Source of the DNA: Alphaproteobacteria bacterium
GTDB taxonomy: Bacteria > Pseudomonadota > Alphaproteobacteria > Rs-D84
DNA: 64,000 bases
Assembly: GCA_017451625.1 (NCBI GenBank)
Contig: JAFTNY010000033.1
Coordinates: 13,800-77,799 of the forward strand
Direction of reading: 5' to 3'
Positions 30,380-57,143 of this stretch are shown here, piece by piece (position 1 is the first letter of the stretch; each line of letters opens with the position of its first letter). A program made the translations under genes and the position numbers. The notes under the pieces are model-generated. The model made no database searches, was not told the DNA's origin, and saw only the letters and a list, made by a program, of their open reading frames with translations.

Positions 30380-30535
30380 ACTTGCAAAAAATCGCTGTAC
30401 GCGGTAAAATATATGGCGTACAGAATAAAAATAACTGCCGAATCCAATGGGACGATTGTTATCGGCATAATATTTAAAAATTTAATCCCAGATTTCTGCA
30501 TTTTTTATCTCCCACTTTGTGCCGAATCTAATCGT
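30380..30535 (+). repeat. Copy (B) of conserved ~150-bp 5' module upstream of Cys-rich secreted-protein gene
   Basis: ~95% identical to the reverse complement of 51289..51440. It contains the inverted repeat 'ctgtacgc-N14-gcgtacag' and two 'gccgaatc(c/t)aa' boxes. Confidence 0.6.
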
Positions 30536-31112
30536 CGGTTTGGGGTTGGCAATGGTTGTCAACGCAGCATCCGCTGCAACGTTAGTTTTTGCAAATACAA
30601 CCGGTGGAAGTATGTCAGGTTCCGGAACTTATATCAATCCAAGTTCAAACCAATACTATAAATGTTCGAATAGTTTTACCGCAGGTTGCAGTGGGTATGC
30701 CGCCGCCAGAATTTCTTATTCATCGCGCACCAGCGGCAGTGGTACTTCCACCAACCCCTACATACTAACCAATTGTTCTATATCTGCGTGTTTATGTGAT
30801 TACACTGTTGTGTATACATCCAGTGGATGCGGTTCCACCTGCAGTTATGGACTGCGCGCCACGCCGGCCAGTGCAACAGGTGATGCCCAATATCATCAAA
30901 ACACAGCATGTAATTACTGTGGTTATAATAATTATGTATACAGTTTTAGTCCCGCCCCAGGGGTGACGGTAAAACAATGCAACACATGCCCCAATGGTGG
31001 CACCAGTGATGGAACAGGCGACATTACATCATGTTGTCTTGCCGCAAATTGGACAGGTACAGACGAAAAGGGAACGTTCAAGTGTGGCAGTTCCGCATGT
31101 TATCAAAATTAA
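30519..31112 (+). CDS. Secreted Cys/Ser/Thr/Gly-rich protein (cysteine-rich secreted family)
   Basis: GTG start inside the conserved module ('MPNLIVGLGLAMVVNAASAATLVFA' signal-like). 19 Cys; 'CNTCPNGGTSDGTGDITSCC' motif. Confidence 0.6.
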   Translation: MPNLIVGLGLAMVVNAASAATLVFANTTGGSMSGSGTYINPSSNQYYKCSNSFTAGCSGYAAARISYSSRTSGSGTSTNPYILTNCSISACLCDYTVVYTSSGCGSTCSYGLRATPASATGDAQYHQNTACNYCGYNNYVYSFSPAPGVTVKQCNTCPNGGTSDGTGDITSCCLAANWTGTDEKGTFKCGSSACYQN

Positions 31113-32193: not shown

Positions 32194-32703
32194 TTAATAT
32201 CGTCCAATACACCCCAGATATGAATTGCCGGTCGATTCCAGTACATTTATAAACTGGCTTTGGTTTCTGCCTGAAAACAGTGCCAATATTGTCCCTGCAT
32301 CTGTGGCCAGCATATCAGCCACCGTTGCAATACCTGAATTCATCTTTTTGAAAAATCCACTGGTTGGGTATATTTCTGCCGCCAACAGTTGTGTCTGTCC
32401 CCGCGGTTTTGCGTTTTTCTGGGATTCAATAACCATCAGTTGGCATTCTGGCGAAATAATCACTTTGTCAGACACGATTCCATCACCCCCCAACAGTTCG
32501 CCCCACCAACCGGTTGATTCGCAGAACACAGGGTAATAAATCACCGCATTCGGATTGTCGGCCAAGATGGTCGCAATGTCGACATCGTCTGAACATACAT
32601 CAGGCATAACGCCCGTTGCATTATTGATAACTTTGCGTGCCAACTGGTATTCACAATCCCCAGTTGTCTTGCGTGGCCAGTAAAGAATCGGAAACTTTGT
32701 CAT
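32194..32703 (-). CDS. Hypothetical protein
   Basis: 169 aa with no motif I can assign. Confidence 0.35.
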   Translation of the reverse strand: MTKFPILYWPRKTTGDCEYQLARKVINNATGVMPDVCSDDVDIATILADNPNAVIYYPVFCESTGWWGELLGGDGIVSDKVIISPECQLMVIESQKNAKPRGQTQLLAAEIYPTSGFFKKMNSGIATVADMLATDAGTILALFSGRNQSQFINVLESTGNSYLGCIGRY

Positions 32704-32771: not shown

Positions 32772-34061
32772 TTATTTTTTTATCGCGGCGTACCATTTTT
32801 TCAGGTTTTCCCACACAATATTGGCGTTCTTTTTTGCTGTGTCATAGAAGTCTGTTGATACCTGAACCTTAAACAAAGTCTTGGACAGGGCCGGAATCAT
32901 TGTCATAAACATTGCAAAGAATATCCCCATCAAAACAATTGTTATCAAACTGTCATTGCGCATCATCAGTGCATCCATCAAAAATTTCGAATCGTTTTGA
33001 CTTAACGCGGTCGCCAATGCTGGCGCGCCCGCCCAGTCGCCAAACACCGCGTCCAAGAACATAATTGCAAACGAAACAAATATACCTGTGATTGCCAATG
33101 CAAATGTTGCACTGATAACATAATCAACAATTCCACGAATCGTTTTTCCGGCCCCTGCCAGTGAAATTTTCCACCCTTTGAACAGCCACGCCAACAGCAT
33201 CAACGGCAACATAACCAGATCCATTGACAGTGTTATAAATATCTCTAAAAAGTACATCGGAATCGGCAACAGTGCCATAAAGAACAGCACCAATATCGCC
33301 AGTCCTGCAAAAAACAGAATAACGTTTGGGAAAATTGGAATGTCCCACAAAATTTTATGCATATAGTCTGCATCAAACGCCATATTCAGCATTGTCCACC
33401 CGACCGTCATCCCCAGACCCGTCATCTGATGCACGCCGGCCAATTCACACGCCAGATTGTGGCGCAGTCGTGGTGAAAACGCCCCCGCGTTTGCCGCATT
33501 TGTATCAACCGACACTGGATCTGCGATTGCCGTCGCGACGACACATGCATCAAAGGTATCGTCATGCACAACCGCGCGATTCAGCGACAGCCCGACATTG
33601 AAAATTGGTTCAATCGCGATTTCAGAAATCATTCGTGGCAATGGCGCGACCAAAAACGCGCACACAATCCCCAATCGTACCAGATGGTTTGTAAACGTGC
33701 TGGCCAGCGACCATGGCTGTTCTGTCTTGGCGTTCAAGAATCCGTCCATCAATCGCCATGCAAACCATATCGCAGACAGCATTATTGCAAACGGGATTAT
33801 TGTATGCCCCAGTGCATCGTAAATTCGCGGCAAGATGCCCGACATGGTTGCCATAACGTCTGAAAACATTTGGCATGACCAGCAACTGGAAAAGAATTGA
33901 TATGCGTCCGCCATGCTGACCGGCACTGCAGATCGATATATTGAAAAACCGGCAATAACGCCGACACCGGCGATGCCTGCGATAACAAATGGTGCCACCG
34001 CCCCCGCCGTCCATGGCAAGAACGATAAAAACACAATCCAAAATTTTTTTAACCGGCTCAT
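32772..34061 (-). CDS. Polytopic membrane protein, paralog 1 of a 5-member tandem family (tentatively VirB6/TrbL-like)
   Basis: ATG at 34061 ('MSRLKKFWIV...'); 'SSCWSCQMFSDV' C-x-x-C...F motif, then multiple TM helices. The Lys-rich amphipathic C-terminus ('...WENLKKWYAAIKK') is shared with the paralogs. Confidence 0.55.
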   Translation of the reverse strand: MSRLKKFWIVFLSFLPWTAGAVAPFVIAGIAGVGVIAGFSIYRSAVPVSMADAYQFFSSCWSCQMFSDVMATMSGILPRIYDALGHTIIPFAIMLSAIWFAWRLMDGFLNAKTEQPWSLASTFTNHLVRLGIVCAFLVAPLPRMISEIAIEPIFNVGLSLNRAVVHDDTFDACVVATAIADPVSVDTNAANAGAFSPRLRHNLACELAGVHQMTGLGMTVGWTMLNMAFDADYMHKILWDIPIFPNVILFFAGLAILVLFFMALLPIPMYFLEIFITLSMDLVMLPLMLLAWLFKGWKISLAGAGKTIRGIVDYVISATFALAITGIFVSFAIMFLDAVFGDWAGAPALATALSQNDSKFLMDALMMRNDSLITIVLMGIFFAMFMTMIPALSKTLFKVQVSTDFYDTAKKNANIVWENLKKWYAAIKK

Positions 34062-34071
34062 TGTTTTTAAG

Positions 34072-34101
34072 TATATCACATTTTGTCCCAAATGTGATAT
34101 A
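34072..34101. promoter_or_regulatory. Perfect 12-bp inverted repeat in divergent promoter region between paralog 1 and paralog 2
   Basis: 'tatatcacattt-gtccc-aaatgtgatata' centred in the 68-bp intergenic region. Confidence 0.5.
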
Positions 34102-34129
34102 ATTGAAATGATAAATATAAAAGCCGAGA

Positions 34130-35404
34130 ATGTATTTGTTGAAAAAAATATTATGTACGCTGATATTTGCTGCGGTGTTTTGCACGCCGGTATCTGCGTA
34201 CGCAGACAACAGTATTATTGATGCTTTGAATTTGGCACCGTTTGTTCCACTGGTGTTGGATGCGTTGATGACGGTTGCCACAGGTGGCTATGAATACTTT
34301 GTTGGCCATGACGGCCATGGAATTATCTATGTATTTATTTGGATTTTCTTGGGTACAACAATTTTATTGTCATTGGTAAAAATGTACTGGCCGCAACAGT
34401 GGCTGGGGTTTGTCGGTCTGTCCGGTGGTGGCGAAATTGCCGCTGGTAAAACAAACGGATATAAAGTCATCGAAAACACAGCCAAGCCCGCATTTCGCGC
34501 ATTGATTGCTGCAATCTTTTTATTACAGGTACAACCAACGTTTTTGACCCAGTGGCTGGTTAATCCGTTTTTACAGTTGGGTGCAGTCTATACGCATCAC
34601 ATCACAGACCAGATAAACGAATCGGGCGTGTCTGCGCCTGCGGTGGCATGTCCCTATGACGTTGTCGATAATGCATGGTTGACCCCAGAATCGTGCGAAT
34701 TTCTGGTTCAGCCGGTGGCAGATTTATCGCATGCAAACAACCAGATTGTAAAACGTGGCTTTGAATTTATCACGCGTGGTCTGCGCGGGCTGATAACATT
34801 GGTGCCGCATGGTGGCGCGGACTTTATGAATCTGATAACGGGGATTTTATTGGTCTTTACCTTTGTGTCCAGTAATTTGTTTATGGCACTGCTGATTATC
34901 CAAGGAATATTTAATTTTGGAATGCAGTTAATTTTGTATCCGTTTTATGTTCTGACCTATGTTATGAAGTCCAGCGATAAATGGTTCGACATATGGCCGG
35001 TATTCAGTGGTATAACCAAGGCCCTGCAACAACTGATTATAACAATGATTGCGTGTGGTTTTATTTTGTGTGTTAACTTGGCGATAATCAAGGCCCTGTT
35101 CCAGTGGGACACGTCCATATTTGTTGTTGCCGCCGGTGGCACCGCCACCAGTAATGTTCCAACCACTGCAAATTCTGCAATGGGATTTGGCGAACATTCA
35201 CTGACGTGGATGTCGGCAATATTGACGTTCTATTTGATGTTCAAGATATTTGATATGACGCAAAAGCAACTGCAAAAATACATCGGCGGTGGAATGGATG
35301 GGCTGTATAAACAGGTAAAATCTGATGCAGGCACAATGACATCTAATCTTAAAAATTGGGGCCAGAAAATCGGCACAGCAATCGGTTGGTTAAAGAAAAA
35401 ATAA
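34130..35404 (+). CDS. Polytopic membrane protein, paralog 2 (signal peptide + multi-TM)
   Basis: Signal peptide 'MYLLKKILCTLIFAAVFCTPVSAYA'. Conserved 'NPFLQLGAVYTHH' segment; C-terminal '...NWGQKIGTAIGWLKKK'. Confidence 0.55.
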   Translation: MYLLKKILCTLIFAAVFCTPVSAYADNSIIDALNLAPFVPLVLDALMTVATGGYEYFVGHDGHGIIYVFIWIFLGTTILLSLVKMYWPQQWLGFVGLSGGGEIAAGKTNGYKVIENTAKPAFRALIAAIFLLQVQPTFLTQWLVNPFLQLGAVYTHHITDQINESGVSAPAVACPYDVVDNAWLTPESCEFLVQPVADLSHANNQIVKRGFEFITRGLRGLITLVPHGGADFMNLITGILLVFTFVSSNLFMALLIIQGIFNFGMQLILYPFYVLTYVMKSSDKWFDIWPVFSGITKALQQLIITMIACGFILCVNLAIIKALFQWDTSIFVVAAGGTATSNVPTTANSAMGFGEHSLTWMSAILTFYLMFKIFDMTQKQLQKYIGGGMDGLYKQVKSDAGTMTSNLKNWGQKIGTAIGWLKKK

Positions 35405-35405
35405 A

Positions 35406-36599
35406 ATGAACGACGTGTTAACATCTTTGGTGGATAAAACGGTGCAGTGTTGGGGCTGTGGGTTGTTTGACCGTCTGTTCCAAGTTGTATCGGATGCCGC
35501 CGCCGCCGCGTATCAGCAAATGTCAACCGTCTGCATAATTTTGTTTTGTACGCTGTTTTCCTTCTTTGTACTGCATGCGGTATGGCAGACGATTAAGGGT
35601 GGCACATCTGACCCATGGTACGAGAAGTCTGTACAAAAGGTTTTTATTAACGCGATTGTGTGCATCGGGCTGTTAAGTATGGGGGTGGTTTTGCCGCGCT
35701 TTATCACAACAATCACTGTTGAACCGGCGGCGCAAATCGCCACCGCGTACACGCAGGCAATGGTTCAGCAAGATACCATCAGCGTCGAAGACAAGGTTGA
35801 CTATCAACCAATGGAAATGAGTGATTCCGGATTCTATCGTCCCCAGTTGCGCGACAAAATTATTCTGTTGATGAAGACAACGATTACACAGTTCCAATCA
35901 TATATGAAACTGGGAATCGCGGTTATGGATCGTGCGTTTTCATGGGATGCGTTGCTGGGGATTGGCAGTTTCTTGAAACACGTGATTTTGTTTGCAATCG
36001 GTCTGTATTTGACATGGGGATTTTTTAAACTGTTTTTCAGATACTGCTGCTATTTTGCAGACATCATAATTGCGATGACCTTTTTTGCATTTTTCTTTCC
36101 GTTGTCCTTGATGCTGTTCGCGTTCAAGGGTGCCAGCAACGTCCCCGGTTGGATTGGCAAGATGGGGCAAAATCTGGGGACCAGCCAATTAAAGAATCTG
36201 ATAAACGCAATAATTACATTGTCATCTGCGGTCATAACCTATACCGTCATCATGGTTATTATTGCCAAGTTCTTTTCCCTATCTGGTGCAGACACCACAA
36301 CCTTGATGCAGGCGATTACATCTGGTCAGGTTTTTGCCGATGATTTAAACACTGAAAATTTGCAGGCCATGACACTGGCCAGTTGCATAATCTTGGTATA
36401 CGTACTGAATTACATCTATGGTCAAATCCCCCAGATTTCCAAGATGATTCTGTCTGCATTTGGTGTCAGTGAAGAAAAATCAGAAAGTGAACAGTTGGCA
36501 AATGATATGTTGCACCTGACCAGTACGATATGGGAAAATGCCAAGAAAATAGGCACAACGATTATCAAAGGCGGCGAAACAGGGGACGGTAAGAAATAA
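35406..36599 (+). CDS. Polytopic membrane protein, paralog 3
   Basis: 'VQCWGCGLFDRLFQVV' motif; C-terminal '...WENAKKIG...GDGKK'. The start lies 2 nt after the stop of paralog 2. Confidence 0.55.
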   Translation: MNDVLTSLVDKTVQCWGCGLFDRLFQVVSDAAAAAYQQMSTVCIILFCTLFSFFVLHAVWQTIKGGTSDPWYEKSVQKVFINAIVCIGLLSMGVVLPRFITTITVEPAAQIATAYTQAMVQQDTISVEDKVDYQPMEMSDSGFYRPQLRDKIILLMKTTITQFQSYMKLGIAVMDRAFSWDALLGIGSFLKHVILFAIGLYLTWGFFKLFFRYCCYFADIIIAMTFFAFFFPLSLMLFAFKGASNVPGWIGKMGQNLGTSQLKNLINAIITLSSAVITYTVIMVIIAKFFSLSGADTTTLMQAITSGQVFADDLNTENLQAMTLASCIILVYVLNYIYGQIPQISKMILSAFGVSEEKSESEQLANDMLHLTSTIWENAKKIGTTIIKGGETGDGKK

Positions 36600-38086
36600 T
36601 GCTAAAAGCACAGTTGATTTTAATTGCTGTTCGATTGATTATGGGTGCGATTGCGCTGGGGCTGGGCGTGTGGTATGTGTCGTCGTCGATTGGTGGTGCG
36701 TCATTGACATATACCAGTATGAATAACTTTCTGACCGCGGTTGGGGTTGAAAATGGCGATATTGCCAGTGCCAATGGTTGCTTTCTGTGCGGGTATATTT
36801 CAGACCTGTTTTCTGTGATTGGCGGTGCCACAGAACGATTCTGGAATTTGATGGTTGATAACATATGGGTATTGATGGTTATCGGTTTTGGAATATATAT
36901 CTTTATTCATACTGTCCAATATATTTTTGACCATGCGAAAAAGACCGCCACACTGGACCCCAAGGAACACAAAATCGAAGTGCAGGCATGGTTCGACAAA
37001 ATTTGGAAACAGGGCGTTCGCATACTGATTGTCGGTGTGCTGATGGGTGCGTTGGGAATGGGCGGAACGGCGGCACTGAAAACAATTTCCCAGATAACAA
37101 TTACACCGGTTTTGTATGTTGGCTCTGAATTATCTATGTTGGCCACTGGTGTGTCTGATGCGGCCCAGTGTGGTGCGTTGGGGGCGATTGGACAATCCGC
37201 CGCCACAGATATTTTAAACCCAATTATGCAGCCGTTTATGTGCGTAATGGGCAATATCAACAGTGTAATGTTGGCGGGGGCGGCCGGTGGCTTCGCCATG
37301 ATGAATTATGCATGGTTGGGGTTGGGCGGTGGCGCATTGACATGGATGGCCGGATTGGTTTTAGTACTAATGTTCTTGGTTATCGGTTTTGATTTATTTT
37401 TTCAGATTCTGTCTGTTGTCTTTAAATTGATATTCTTGATAATATTTTTACCGCTGCTGTTGGCGGCAACTGCGTTTGAAAACATCTGGGCCAAGGCCAG
37501 TGGACTAATGAGCAAGGCCGTCGGAATGCTGGTGTCGTCGGCGGTTCGGATTGTGGCAATAACGCTGAAAGTTATGGTTATCTATGCAACTGTGTCATAT
37601 GCGGCCGATTCCTATTTCCCTGCGCCAAACGATGGATACAGTTCTGTTTTGCCACCAATGATGGGGGCGCGTGCAGAAAATCCAGACGCACAAACATTGT
37701 CGGTGATGAATGTGTTTGCCACATGCGAACAGGTTGCATTGGTCGACGGCGAAATGGATGCAGATAAATTTAAAAATTGCTTTACCGCACGCCGCGCCGA
37801 AGTGGAACGCACGTATCCCAATGCATTTGACTTTATGGACAATGGGCTTGAATTTTTATTGATGATGCTGTTCTTGTTCTTTTTGTATTATTATGCAATC
37901 AGTCCGCAAATCGACAAACTGTTGCCCAGTGGCGGTATCAAATTGCCTATCCCGTCTGACAGTTCCAGTGTTGCCTCTGGCGAACAATTTGATTATGGCG
38001 CATGGATTCACGATTTGGGACAAAAGGTTTGGGCGGTGCCTGTTCAAATAACGGAAAAAATCACCAAGGCGATGGGTAAAAAGTAA
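36599..38086 (+). CDS. Polytopic membrane protein, paralog 4
   Basis: 'NGCFLCGYISDLFSVI' motif; the start overlaps the stop of paralog 3 (taATG). Confidence 0.55.
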   Translation: MLKAQLILIAVRLIMGAIALGLGVWYVSSSIGGASLTYTSMNNFLTAVGVENGDIASANGCFLCGYISDLFSVIGGATERFWNLMVDNIWVLMVIGFGIYIFIHTVQYIFDHAKKTATLDPKEHKIEVQAWFDKIWKQGVRILIVGVLMGALGMGGTAALKTISQITITPVLYVGSELSMLATGVSDAAQCGALGAIGQSAATDILNPIMQPFMCVMGNINSVMLAGAAGGFAMMNYAWLGLGGGALTWMAGLVLVLMFLVIGFDLFFQILSVVFKLIFLIIFLPLLLAATAFENIWAKASGLMSKAVGMLVSSAVRIVAITLKVMVIYATVSYAADSYFPAPNDGYSSVLPPMMGARAENPDAQTLSVMNVFATCEQVALVDGEMDADKFKNCFTARRAEVERTYPNAFDFMDNGLEFLLMMLFLFFLYYYAISPQIDKLLPSGGIKLPIPSDSSSVASGEQFDYGAWIHDLGQKVWAVPVQITEKITKAMGKK

Positions 38087-38129
38087 TGAAATTATACGCA
38101 ATCTTTTATCAAAATTAATTGTCGTCGTT

Positions 38130-39386
38130 ATGGTGATTGGCGTGGCAACAACTGCGTTTGGTGCGGCATCAAATGTCCCAATGCCGGACGTAGGCGATTA
38201 CGGCACGTGGGCGACCGAAAACAATCGGCAACTGTTTGTGTCTGAATTAACCAGTGATGTCGACAGTTTCAGTGGCAACTTTCAATCCCAACTGGTCCAA
38301 GACTATGTCCCAATCGAGGCAAAGATTGGTCTAATGTTCATGAATGCAATGTCGTTTGTGGCCGACGTTCTGGATTCATCATTGGTGCGATTTGTTATTA
38401 TATTTATGTTTGTTGTGTTTGCGTTTTGGATTGCGTTTGAAACATACAATATGATGATTTCCGGCAAAGGTAAAACCCAAGAATTGTTTACCAGCATTGC
38501 AAAAAAAGGTCTGTTAATTGTCGTATGGGTTATCGTATTGCGATTTGGACCGGCCCAGATATTTATGTGGATTATGGGCCCGATTATCAGTGTTGCCACA
38601 TACGTATCAGATATTATTTTGAACAGTGTTGCGCACAGTGCCGGTGTATCCTTGCCAGATACCTGTGCGGCAATTCGTGAATACGCCGCCGCGCACACAT
38701 CGACAAACAGTATCATTGATGCCACCGCCGCCGCAGATATGATGTGCGTGCCAACGCGTCTGTCTGGTTTTTGCTATACGGCGGTGGCCACTGGGTTGCA
38801 GTGGATGAAACTGGGCATTGGGCACAGTGCGTTTACATTTGTTGTTGGGCTGGTTTTCGTGGTGATGTTTATTGTCATCGCGTGGAAGTTTGCGTTTATC
38901 GCGCTGGGGGTAATTGCAGATTTATTCTTGGGCGTGATGATGTTGCCGTTTACAGCAATAAACGAAACTGTCGGCAAGACATCGTACAAAGGAATGGTCG
39001 GCGATATATTTAACCAGTTTTTATCAATATTCAGCGTCAGTTCTATTGAAAGTTTGGTAAATAAATTCATCAATGCGGCGGTGTATTTTGTTTCTCTGTC
39101 TATCGTTGTGGCATTTTGTGCTGCGCTGATGTCCAGTATTATACCAGATTTGTCTGGCAATATACCTGCACTGGAAAATCAGGGATTTTGGATAACGCTG
39201 TTGGTGGCGGGATTAACGTTGCATTTTGCAAATCGCGCCCAGTCAATTGCCAAAGATATATCAGGTGGCATGTCGGTGAATACTGGTTTTGGTGATCGTG
39301 TGCGCGGCGATATAACCACCTTGTGGAACAAGACATATGGCACCGCCAAAAATTGGTGGAAGATTATTCGCGATGGCAAGAAATAA
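38130..39386 (+). CDS. Polytopic membrane protein, paralog 5
   Basis: Same architecture and C-terminal '...NWWKIIRDGKK'; it lacks the CxxC. Confidence 0.5.
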   Translation: MVIGVATTAFGAASNVPMPDVGDYGTWATENNRQLFVSELTSDVDSFSGNFQSQLVQDYVPIEAKIGLMFMNAMSFVADVLDSSLVRFVIIFMFVVFAFWIAFETYNMMISGKGKTQELFTSIAKKGLLIVVWVIVLRFGPAQIFMWIMGPIISVATYVSDIILNSVAHSAGVSLPDTCAAIREYAAAHTSTNSIIDATAAADMMCVPTRLSGFCYTAVATGLQWMKLGIGHSAFTFVVGLVFVVMFIVIAWKFAFIALGVIADLFLGVMMLPFTAINETVGKTSYKGMVGDIFNQFLSIFSVSSIESLVNKFINAAVYFVSLSIVVAFCAALMSSIIPDLSGNIPALENQGFWITLLVAGLTLHFANRAQSIAKDISGGMSVNTGFGDRVRGDITTLWNKTYGTAKNWWKIIRDGKK

Positions 39387-39444
39387 TATACAAAAACACT
39401 AATGACTAATCTGTTTTTTTATGATATAATCGATTGAAAAAGAA

Positions 39445-56432: not shown

Positions 56433-57143
56433 TTATAATTGTTCTGTCGACAAAAATCCAGTATTTAATGGGTCGCCGTCGCCATCGACAATCAAATATT
56501 CTGCCACACGCAGTCCTAACGGATTATCGATACGATCTGCCCACTTTATTTGCGAATTGTCCTCTTCTTGTAATTTCAATTTGATTGTATAATCTTTTTG
56601 GCGCGTCCGTCCAGTATTATCTGCACAGAAATAGCGAATTTTTACCTGATATGCGTCTTCTGCCGCCAGATACATTATTCCGTCAAATACCACCGGACAT
56701 GTAAATTCAAAGTCTGGCATTTCACTCATCATTGCGGTAAACATTGTTGTGTTCATAAAATCCGCATAGACCGCATCTGTTGACATAATGCGAACTGTAC
56801 CGTCTTCGCCGTTCCACTTTTTATGCATTGCCTTGGCGTTGGTAAAGACTTCGTTTCTGTGGCGGATGTATTCGCGAACAAATGCGCGTTTATATCGGTC
56901 CAGATTTTCGCCCTGTGGCTGCATCTGGGTCAGTTTGATATCTTGGTCATCACGCACAGTTGTTGTTAAAAAGAATATTTGTGGTCGGTTCAATGGGAAC
57001 ATCTTGCCCAGTGTCAACGCCAAAACCCCCAGCACGACCAGCGCGCCAGCCAACACCAACGTCATAATTCTGGATATTAAAATTGGCGGTTTTACGCGGT
57101 TTTGCACGAATTTCTCCCCCTTGATTAAAACGATTGTAGACAA
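56433..57143 (-). CDS. virB8: Type IV secretion system protein VirB8-like
   Basis: Bitopic: short cytoplasmic N-terminus, one TM, NTF2-like periplasmic domain ending in the VirB8 signature 'NPLGLRVAEY'. The likely start is GTG at 57107 (SD 'aagggggag'); the TTG at 57143 is from the ORF track. Confidence 0.7.
   Translation of the reverse strand: MSTIVLIKGEKFVQNRVKPPILISRIMTLVLAGALVVLGVLALTLGKMFPLNRPQIFFLTTTVRDDQDIKLTQMQPQGENLDRYKRAFVREYIRHRNEVFTNAKAMHKKWNGEDGTVRIMSTDAVYADFMNTTMFTAMMSEMPDFEFTCPVVFDGIMYLAAEDAYQVKIRYFCADNTGRTRQKDYTIKLKLQEEDNSQIKWADRIDNPLGLRVAEYLIVDGDGDPLNTGFLSTEQL

Follow-up and report, generated by a model that had tools for sequence, protein, structure and literature searches.

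The 64,000-nucleotide (nt) stretch of alphaproteobacterial DNA analysed here (contig JAFTNY010000033.1, positions 13,800 to 77,799 of the forward strand, GTDB lineage Rs-D84; hereafter the window) carries an array of five genes, designated P1 to P5, that encode polytopic membrane proteins of 397–495 amino acids (aa). For reasons set out below, we consider it probable that these proteins are highly divergent members of the VirB6/TrbL family and belong to a type IV secretion system (T4SS) encoded on the chromosome. The array comprises the following features:

32772–34061, minus strand: P1, VirB6-like paralogue 1, 429 aa from the ATG at 34061
34130–35404, plus strand: P2, VirB6-like paralogue 2, 424 aa, signal-peptide-like N-terminus, without CxxC
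35406–36599, plus strand: P3, VirB6-like paralogue 3, 397 aa, CxxC at residues 15–18, without N-terminal signal
36599–38086, plus strand: P4, VirB6-like paralogue 4, 495 aa, N-terminal hydrophobic segment, CxxC at residues 61–64
38130–39386, plus strand: P5, VirB6-like paralogue 5, 418 aa, without CxxC and without the conserved Trp after the core Pro
34072–34101, no strand: perfect palindrome TATATCACATTT-N6-AAATGTGATATA with 12-bp arms, centred in the 68-bp divergent intergenic region between P1 and P2

The open reading frame (ORF) listing and the junction sequences uphold the five genes as laid out in a first-pass annotation made from the letters alone, tight spacers and P3/P4 overlap included. 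P1 is transcribed divergently from P2 to P5; a single nucleotide separates P2 from P3, the P3 stop and P4 start overlap by 1 nt (TAATG) and a gap of 43 nt lies between P4 and P5. The longest ORF for P1 spans 32772–34091 on the minus strand, up to a TTG at 34091, but the ATG at 34061 is the most likely start because most orthologues are 429 aa in length and because the longer, TTG-initiated ORF has a promoter-like element within it. The P1 N-terminus consists of a hydrophobic segment with the CxxC after it, that of P2 is plausibly a signal peptide with cleavage at MYLLKKILCTLIFAAVFCTPVSAYA/DN, and P4 has a longer Cys-containing loop ahead of its last helix. The palindrome overlaps promoter-like −35/−10 hexamers (consensus matches only) on both strands, at 34075–34103 (plus) and 34098–34070 (minus). 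In 11 of 73 related loci the 12-bp arms match perfectly around a loop that varies, and others have shorter versions. The palindrome is a candidate operator or symmetric divergent promoter.

All-against-all comparison bears out the proposal that the five proteins are paralogous in more than their hydrophobicity. Pairwise identity is only ~16–24 %, yet P1 and P3 match with an E value of 1e-16 over ~390 aa and P4 and P5 with 1e-7. When subfamily profiles built from 79–80 orthologues of each paralogue were compared using hhalign, matches were obtained for P1–P3 (97.4 %), P2–P5 (95.2 %, E 2.8e-8, 289 columns), P1–P5 (89.4 %), P3–P4 (80.3 % over 345 columns), P1–P4 (77.5 %) and P4–P5 (76 %). The first four of these are collinear, and together the six connect all five paralogues: the similarity is homology and not shared hydrophobicity. 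A family hidden Markov model (HMM) built without the window sequences gave E values of 1e-90 (P1), 3.2e-56 (P2), 1.1e-71 (P4) and 1.8e-127 (P5) and recovered exactly these five ORFs in the 64-kb window, with no sixth copy found there.

The five proteins are built to a common plan. An N-proximal amphipathic helix is followed by two hydrophobic helices and a soluble loop of ~90 aa with Cys residues. Beyond this loop are three hydrophobic helices bearing an invariant Pro, and a variable loop then leads to the last hydrophobic helix and to an amphipathic, Lys-rich tail. The CxxC that had been noticed ahead of the first helix in P1, P3 and P4 is absent from P2 and P5, and the same pattern is kept in the orthologues, where the motif is present in 80/80 (P3), 80/80 (P4), 69/79 (P1), 12/80 (P2) and 3/80 (P5). 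A Lys-rich C-terminus ending in KK had likewise been put forward as common to all. Each of the window proteins does end in KK and the tail stays Lys-rich, but in the orthologues the KK itself is frequent rather than invariant (72/79 for P1, 70/80 for P2, 53/80 for P5, 33/80 for P3 and 31/80 for P4).

Conservation of the array was examined in 80 species-level loci from GTDB genomes, nearly all of them Candidatus Enterousia or uncultured (gut) Alphaproteobacteria, and one of them from a closed chromosome of 958,618 bp. The order and orientation of the genes, with P1 on the minus strand and P2, P3, P4 and P5 on the plus strand, is kept in 80/80 loci. Each paralogue is intact in 78–80 loci (P2 in 80/80), and in most loci P1 is followed by the gene for a 169-aa protein, u169, and then by the IMPase gene. 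Median identity of the orthologues to the window proteins is 56–69 %, with P5 evolving fastest of the five (55.6 %); for the neighbouring IMPase and PBP1A the value is ~83 %. Outside this conserved block the flanks vary and are made up of housekeeping genes, and the guanine-plus-cytosine (GC) content of the array, 0.44–0.46, is the same as that of its surroundings. Given this conservation, the housekeeping flanks and the matching GC content, the array is an old chromosomal locus and not a mobile element. Enterousia is placed in the order Rs-D84 by GTDB (PMC12306168) and in Alphaproteobacteria incertae sedis by NCBI; some metagenome-assembled genome records are named ‘uncultured Rickettsiales bacterium’. 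Its genomes are smaller than 1 Mb and encode no respiration and few biosynthetic pathways, and the organism has been inferred to be an obligate symbiont or parasite, with no mention of a secretion system (PMC12306168).

Three independent lines of evidence place the five proteins in the VirB6/TrbL family: transitive Pfam matches, profile–profile comparison and fold comparison. An exhaustive HMMER search with a 40-sequence profile yielded 1143 clusters at 50 % identity. The database relatives are all unnamed or called ‘hypothetical protein [Alphaproteobacteria bacterium]’, without a precomputed Pfam domain, and the distant clusters (E 1e-18 to 1e-34) include proteins of 450–1500 aa. When 46 of the distant family members were scanned, 17 matched PF04610 (TrbL/VirB6); the matches fall inside the segment matched by the profile and four are above the Pfam gathering score. 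For the second line of evidence, a 66-sequence family alignment was compared by hhalign with nine canonical VirB6 proteins from annotated plasmids (R388 TrwI, IncN TraD-type, Agrobacterium, Bartonella, Xylella and others). This gave 95.6 % (E 1.2e-8) over 266 columns, covering TrwI residues 7–278, against 2.3 % for a reversed VirB6 profile and ≤0.4 % for six other polytopic proteins from the window.

The third line of evidence comes from P3, the only paralogue modelled, whose predicted structure has, with clean controls, the VirB6 fold seen in the solved structures of TrwI (7o3v) and DotA (9ngy). The topology is also that of VirB6: a helix at the N-terminus, a pair of N-proximal hydrophobic helices, a large loop in the centre and, at the C-terminus, a bundle of hydrophobic helices, as seen from the collinear alignment and hydropathy of all five proteins and from the helices of the P3 model. 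In the alignment the N-proximal helix falls on the N-terminal helix of TrwI, and the core-helix Pro, invariant in all five, on the invariant P181 of the VirB6 set. Taken as a whole, these results lead us to conclude, with good though not complete confidence, that P1 to P5 are ancient VirB6/TrbL paralogues of a chromosomal T4SS whose genes are scattered in islets. They favour the suggestion of the first-pass annotation that the array is a VirB6/TrbL-like expansion resembling that of the rvh T4SS of Rickettsia, and not its alternative of an undescribed family or novel envelope system, for the proteins belong to a known family, of which they form a highly divergent branch lacking annotation. What is new here is the unannotated VirB6 members; the family and the kind of array are already known.

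Other T4SS genes are found in the window and elsewhere in the lineage, and these are listed here together with the immediate neighbour of P1:

52438–57143, minus strand: virB8–virB9–virB10 islet, 13 kb from the array, recognised by Pfam
56433–57143, minus strand: virB8 (Pfam VirB8, 1.2e-7)
54870–56402, minus strand: virB9, 510 aa (Pfam CagX/VirB9, 2.5e-21)
52438–54894, minus strand: virB10, 818 aa (Pfam TrbI/VirB10, 7.9e-19)
L092:10001–12241 and L072:3–1328 (related loci): virD4, 746 aa, a lone gene among housekeeping genes
32194–32703, minus strand: u169, 169-aa protein, directly downstream of P1

The Pfam matches confirm that virB8-10 lie in the same window as the array, as had been stated; the corresponding NCBIfam matches are far under the curated cut-offs. 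The window holds one copy of virB8 and one of virB9, and the cell-wall housekeeping genes for PBP1A, mraY, ftsW and murG lie between the islet and the array. The virD4 gene is well conserved in the lineage (746–755 aa, 80–89 % identity between species). The array, virB8-10 and virD4 occupy three separate housekeeping contexts. VirB8, VirB9, VirB10 and VirD4 are thus all present in the lineage.

Several further features of these genes were noted. VirB9 has a C-terminal SPOR-like (peptidoglycan-binding) region with a Pfam E value of 9e-4, just below the cut-off, whilst VirB10 is unusually long, with its TrbI domain only at residues 410–616. Directly downstream of virB10 are two ORFs of 114 and 122 aa (51464–52189, minus strand) that showed no family match, no pilin-like hydrophobic pattern and no obvious membrane segments. 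The virD4 gene is flanked by rRNA-modification genes (PseudoU_synth_2 and Methyltrans_RNA) and, at its other end, by a glycerol-3-phosphate dehydrogenase gene; gidB and parAB are found further out. One species has virD4 within ~6 kb of the VirB6 array, at ~8.7 kb upstream of P3. The u169 gene is found beside P1 in 76/80 loci and its product, with a median identity of 79 %, lacks a signal peptide and ends in ...LGCIGRY. No match to u169 was obtained in Pfam, NCBIfam, PHROGs or PDB sequences and no homologue was found in the distant array L091 (described below). It may be an accessory gene or merely a conserved neighbour.

A number of results weigh against the assignment to VirB6. None of the five proteins has a direct match in Pfam, to PF04610 or to any other entry, even at E ≤ 1, in keeping with the earlier remark that no TrbL signature is directly visible, although this reflects undetectability and is not positive evidence against membership. 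NCBIfam likewise gave no match for any of the five. The genus-level subfamily profiles, when compared with canonical VirB6, reached ≤9 % (not significant); since these alone miss canonical VirB6, the link depends on the broad profile and on the one modelled paralogue, P3. A Trp corresponding to the essential one of VirB6 follows the core Pro by 11–17 residues in P1 to P4 but is absent from P5. Finally, probing the window and the 80 loci with R388 T4SS proteins in phmmer, a search that took in no other part of the genome, revealed no VirB4, VirB11, VirB2, VirB3 or VirB5; a small VirB3 could escape phmmer but VirB4 should not. More narrowly, and as the first-pass annotation had observed of the genes ahead of the array, there is no VirB3 or VirB4 within ~10 kb of it, a result that extends across the 80 related loci as well as the window. 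Some weak ‘VirB11’ matches proved to be MgsA AAA+ ATPases. In other searches, PHROGs gave nothing useful for the five proteins, the PDB sequences returned chance matches only to the 40- and 66-sequence profiles, hhalign found no match between the narrow profile A2 and the single TrwI sequence, and no significant match was seen between the genus-level profiles and RvhB6b. No characterised transporter family (ABC permease, MFS etc.) was matched in Pfam, NCBIfam, PHROGs or PDB sequences.

How might five VirB6 paralogues function? VirB6 is a polytopic inner-membrane subunit. The VirB6/DotA stalk is a pentamer in both the R388 and Dot/Icm systems (PMC12857230) and, by homology, the five proteins would form the central stalk, platform or proto-channel of a T4SS. 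A promoter in the 68-bp divergent region would drive P2 to P5 as one transcript with coupled translation, and the opposite promoter would drive P1. All five would be exported so that the N-proximal amphipathic helix comes to lie in the periplasm, by means of an N-terminal signal or anchor in P1, P2 and P4 and of the acidic tail in P3. The N-termini fit a periplasmic location of this segment: P1, P2 and P4 have hydrophobic leaders, whilst P3 has none and begins with an acidic tail. The CWxC of P1, P3 and P4 would then lie in an oxidising compartment. The probable role of the machine as a whole is contact-dependent exchange with another cell, a partner that this metabolically dependent bacterium presumably needs.

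The presence of exactly five genes, their retention in 80 minimal genomes, their tight packing and the pentameric parent structure suggest that the paralogues belong to one assembly in which none is redundant, and that they would co-assemble into the stalk of a single machine instead of serving as redundant spares. In its most specific form, this would mean a pentamer built from all five paralogues, one copy apiece, and hence an asymmetric stalk with a periplasmic CxxC on P1, P3 and P4 and none on P2 and P5. Of the specific models this is the one we prefer, though we offer it tentatively, as a possible and not yet a probable arrangement. The stronger proposal, that the five proteins occupy five dedicated, non-interchangeable positions in a heteropentamer with an origin separate from that of the five RvhB6 proteins of Rickettsia, strikes us as unlikely. 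Four-copy arrays, both in a distant lineage (L091) and in the Anaplasmataceae, count against a heteropentamer by showing that five is not a universal number. We found no proposal of a VirB6 heteropentamer in the literature searched.

The main rival reading is a different use of the same proteins, in which the VirB6-fold proteins are alternatives to one another, each building its own homopentameric stalk or serving different substrates, partners or conditions on one VirB8-10 scaffold. This has been raised explicitly as an open possibility for the rickettsial paralogues (PMC8035066). P1 has its own divergent promoter-like element, the paralogues evolve at different rates (median identity 56 to 69 %) and related lineages have four copies, not five, all of which would fit such an arrangement. 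Against this, the 1-nt, overlapping and 43-nt junctions of P2 to P5 favour co-expression, and all five genes are kept without exception in 80 species with genomes of less than 1 Mb. An interaction among four Ehrlichia paralogues is reported, to go by its title, in a paper cited in PMC12857230. Alternative use of the paralogues is, in our view, a possibility on the doubtful side.

A second alternative is that the array has nothing to do with type IV secretion and encodes a new envelope or export system, possibly involving the Cys-rich secreted protein encoded next to it. The relevant genes are as follows:

39445–41709, plus strand: 754-aa Cys-rich secreted protein, with its own promoter-like site at 39402–39430
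48356–50548, plus strand: 730-aa Cys-rich secreted protein, of which the 754-aa protein is a distant paralogue (E 1e-6)
30519–31112, plus strand: small Cys-rich secreted protein, with a 166-bp repeat
50945–51301, minus strand: small Cys-rich secreted protein, with a 166-bp repeat

Several observations lend themselves to such a reading: no curated profile recognises the five proteins and PDB sequence searches find nothing, virB3/virB4 are not adjacent to the array, and in this genome a Cys-rich secreted protein follows P5 while its paralogue is encoded near virB8-10. The first-pass annotation, which saw the array running into the 754-aa gene, was correct as to this window, where the gap is 58 nt. 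The adjacency is not conserved, however. Across most of the 80 related species the genes next after P5 are those for a helicase and an exonuclease, and the Cys-rich homologue is found further from P5, usually on the opposite strand, its position and orientation varying among the 80 loci. Together with the promoter-like element that the gene possesses, this leaves the idea of a dedicated export or surface-assembly module unsupported and we have not counted the Cys-rich protein as part of the module. With the profile–profile and fold evidence for VirB6, its clean controls and the transitive Pfam TrbL matches also standing against it, the novel envelope system is very improbable and has largely been refuted already.

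The Cys-rich proteins could themselves be surface proteins or T4SS substrates. Scans of Pfam, NCBIfam and PHROGs gave nothing useful for the 754-aa protein, whose gene adjoins the VirB6 array; the 730-aa gene is ~2 kb from the virB8-10 islet. Homologues of the two are encoded side by side in many related species, a few kb downstream of P5. In the window, the two small genes have an inverted repeat of 166 bp in common (94.6 % identity; 30380–30544, plus, and 51276–51440, minus) that spans the upstream region and first codons, encoding the signal peptide MPNL.VGLG..., and this common 5′ cassette points to a family of genes that share an expression or leader element.

The last alternative, that the array is the remnant of a conjugative plasmid or integrative element, draws on the fact that VirB6/TrbL proteins are typical of conjugative elements and that the canonical homologues compared are plasmid-borne, but it can be dismissed almost entirely as the same array lies between the same housekeeping genes in 80 species, the GC content (0.44–0.46) is that of the surroundings, the orthologues diverge with their species, and no relaxase, integrase or VirB4 is found nearby.

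If P1 to P5 are indeed VirB6 paralogues of a T4SS, then a machine with a five-fold VirB6 expansion becomes a concrete candidate organelle for partner contact in an abundant gut lineage in which no T4SS has previously been described. Multicopy VirB6 has been regarded as a hallmark of rvh (PMC8035066). Here it is found outside the Rickettsiales, and it probably arose more than once. Whether the complexes formed by such paralogues are heterogeneous or homogeneous has been a question on rickettsial T4SSs since 2009 (PMC2653234; PMC8035066) and, since VirB6 and DotA form pentamers, paralogues that are short, strictly conserved as a set and exactly five in number provide a tractable test. Were a heteropentamer to be confirmed, the change from homopentamer to asymmetric five-gene ring would be an adaptation made repeatedly by effector- or contact-type T4SSs of Alphaproteobacteria with reduced genomes, and the compact Enterousia proteins, being bare VirB6 domains, would be the simplest model for how VirB6 paralogues enter a machine.

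How, then, does the Enterousia array compare with known systems? The canonical VirB6/TrwI proteins (R388, pKM101, Agrobacterium) and DotA (Legionella Dot/Icm) are encoded in single copy and form homopentamers, in contrast to the five paralogues seen here. The Enterousia proteins are also 50–150 aa longer than these, with extra Cys residues in the periplasmic loop, a Lys-rich C-terminal amphipathic tail and, in three of the five, a CWxC capping the N-terminal helix, and they are not detected by PF04610.

Other counterparts are the extended VirB6 proteins and VirB6 fusions of other uncultured gut Alphaproteobacteria. These belong to the same HMMER-defined family (E ≤ 1e-18), have the CWxC..F..F N-terminal motif (A3 consensus) and are likewise encoded in tandem, but are 450–1500 aa in length and in some cases possess N-terminal Peptidase_M23 and VgrG3-like peptidoglycan-hydrolase domains that the Enterousia proteins lack. 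In a more distant uncultured lineage (L091:1832–12305, Logan ERR10855804 contig), four family members of 924, 448, 783 and 1331 aa are encoded in tandem, and the 1331-aa protein has Peptidase_M23 and VgrG3-like domains fused to it. Tandem VirB6 arrays are thus of wide occurrence in this part of the tree. Among the distant relatives P0355, P0364, P0370, P0380 and P0381, several have an N-terminal Peptidase_M23 domain, and sometimes a VgrG3-like C-terminal domain, on the VirB6 domain. Such fusions may provide a built-in VirB1 substitute or a bacteria-killing function.

In architecture, the array strongly resembles rvh. Rickettsia has five tandem VirB6 genes with ~80 % divergence between paralogues, T4SS genes scattered as an ‘archipelago’ and VirB6/TrbL domains that average 413 aa (PMC2653234; PMC8035066); the RvhB6 proteins as a whole are 674–1154 aa in length (PMC2653234). 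In Anaplasmataceae and Wolbachia there are four such genes. The rvh system is further marked by duplicate VirB4, VirB8 and VirB9 and by the absence of VirB5; within the 64 kb of Enterousia sequence covered here, virB8 and virB9 each occur once. The Enterousia genes are likewise tandem and five in number, their products are extremely divergent (~16–24 % pairwise identity) and, at 397–495 aa, close in size to the ~413-aa VirB6/TrbL domain of RvhB6, and the T4SS islets lie among housekeeping genes in the reduced genome of a host- or partner-dependent alphaproteobacterium. Unlike rvh, however, the array has no virB3-virB4 ahead of it, its first gene is divergent, its proteins lack large N- or C-terminal extensions and are thus, as the first-pass annotation had it, smaller than rickettsial VirB6 proteins, virD4 stands alone instead of being clustered with virB8-11, and the lineage belongs to Rs-D84 (incertae sedis) and not to the Rickettsiales. 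Nor is there a specific affinity in sequence to RvhB6a or RvhB6b, which were taken from the supplementary alignment of PMC2653234 and to which, rather than RvhB6c–e, the comparison applies: the family profile gave 38 % over 63 columns with RvhB6b and nothing with RvhB6a, whereas canonical VirB6 gave 93 % and 83 % respectively. With several rvh-defining features failing in this way, the Enterousia expansion looks, as far as these two proteins can tell, to be independent of that in rvh, or at least not specifically co-ancestral with it.

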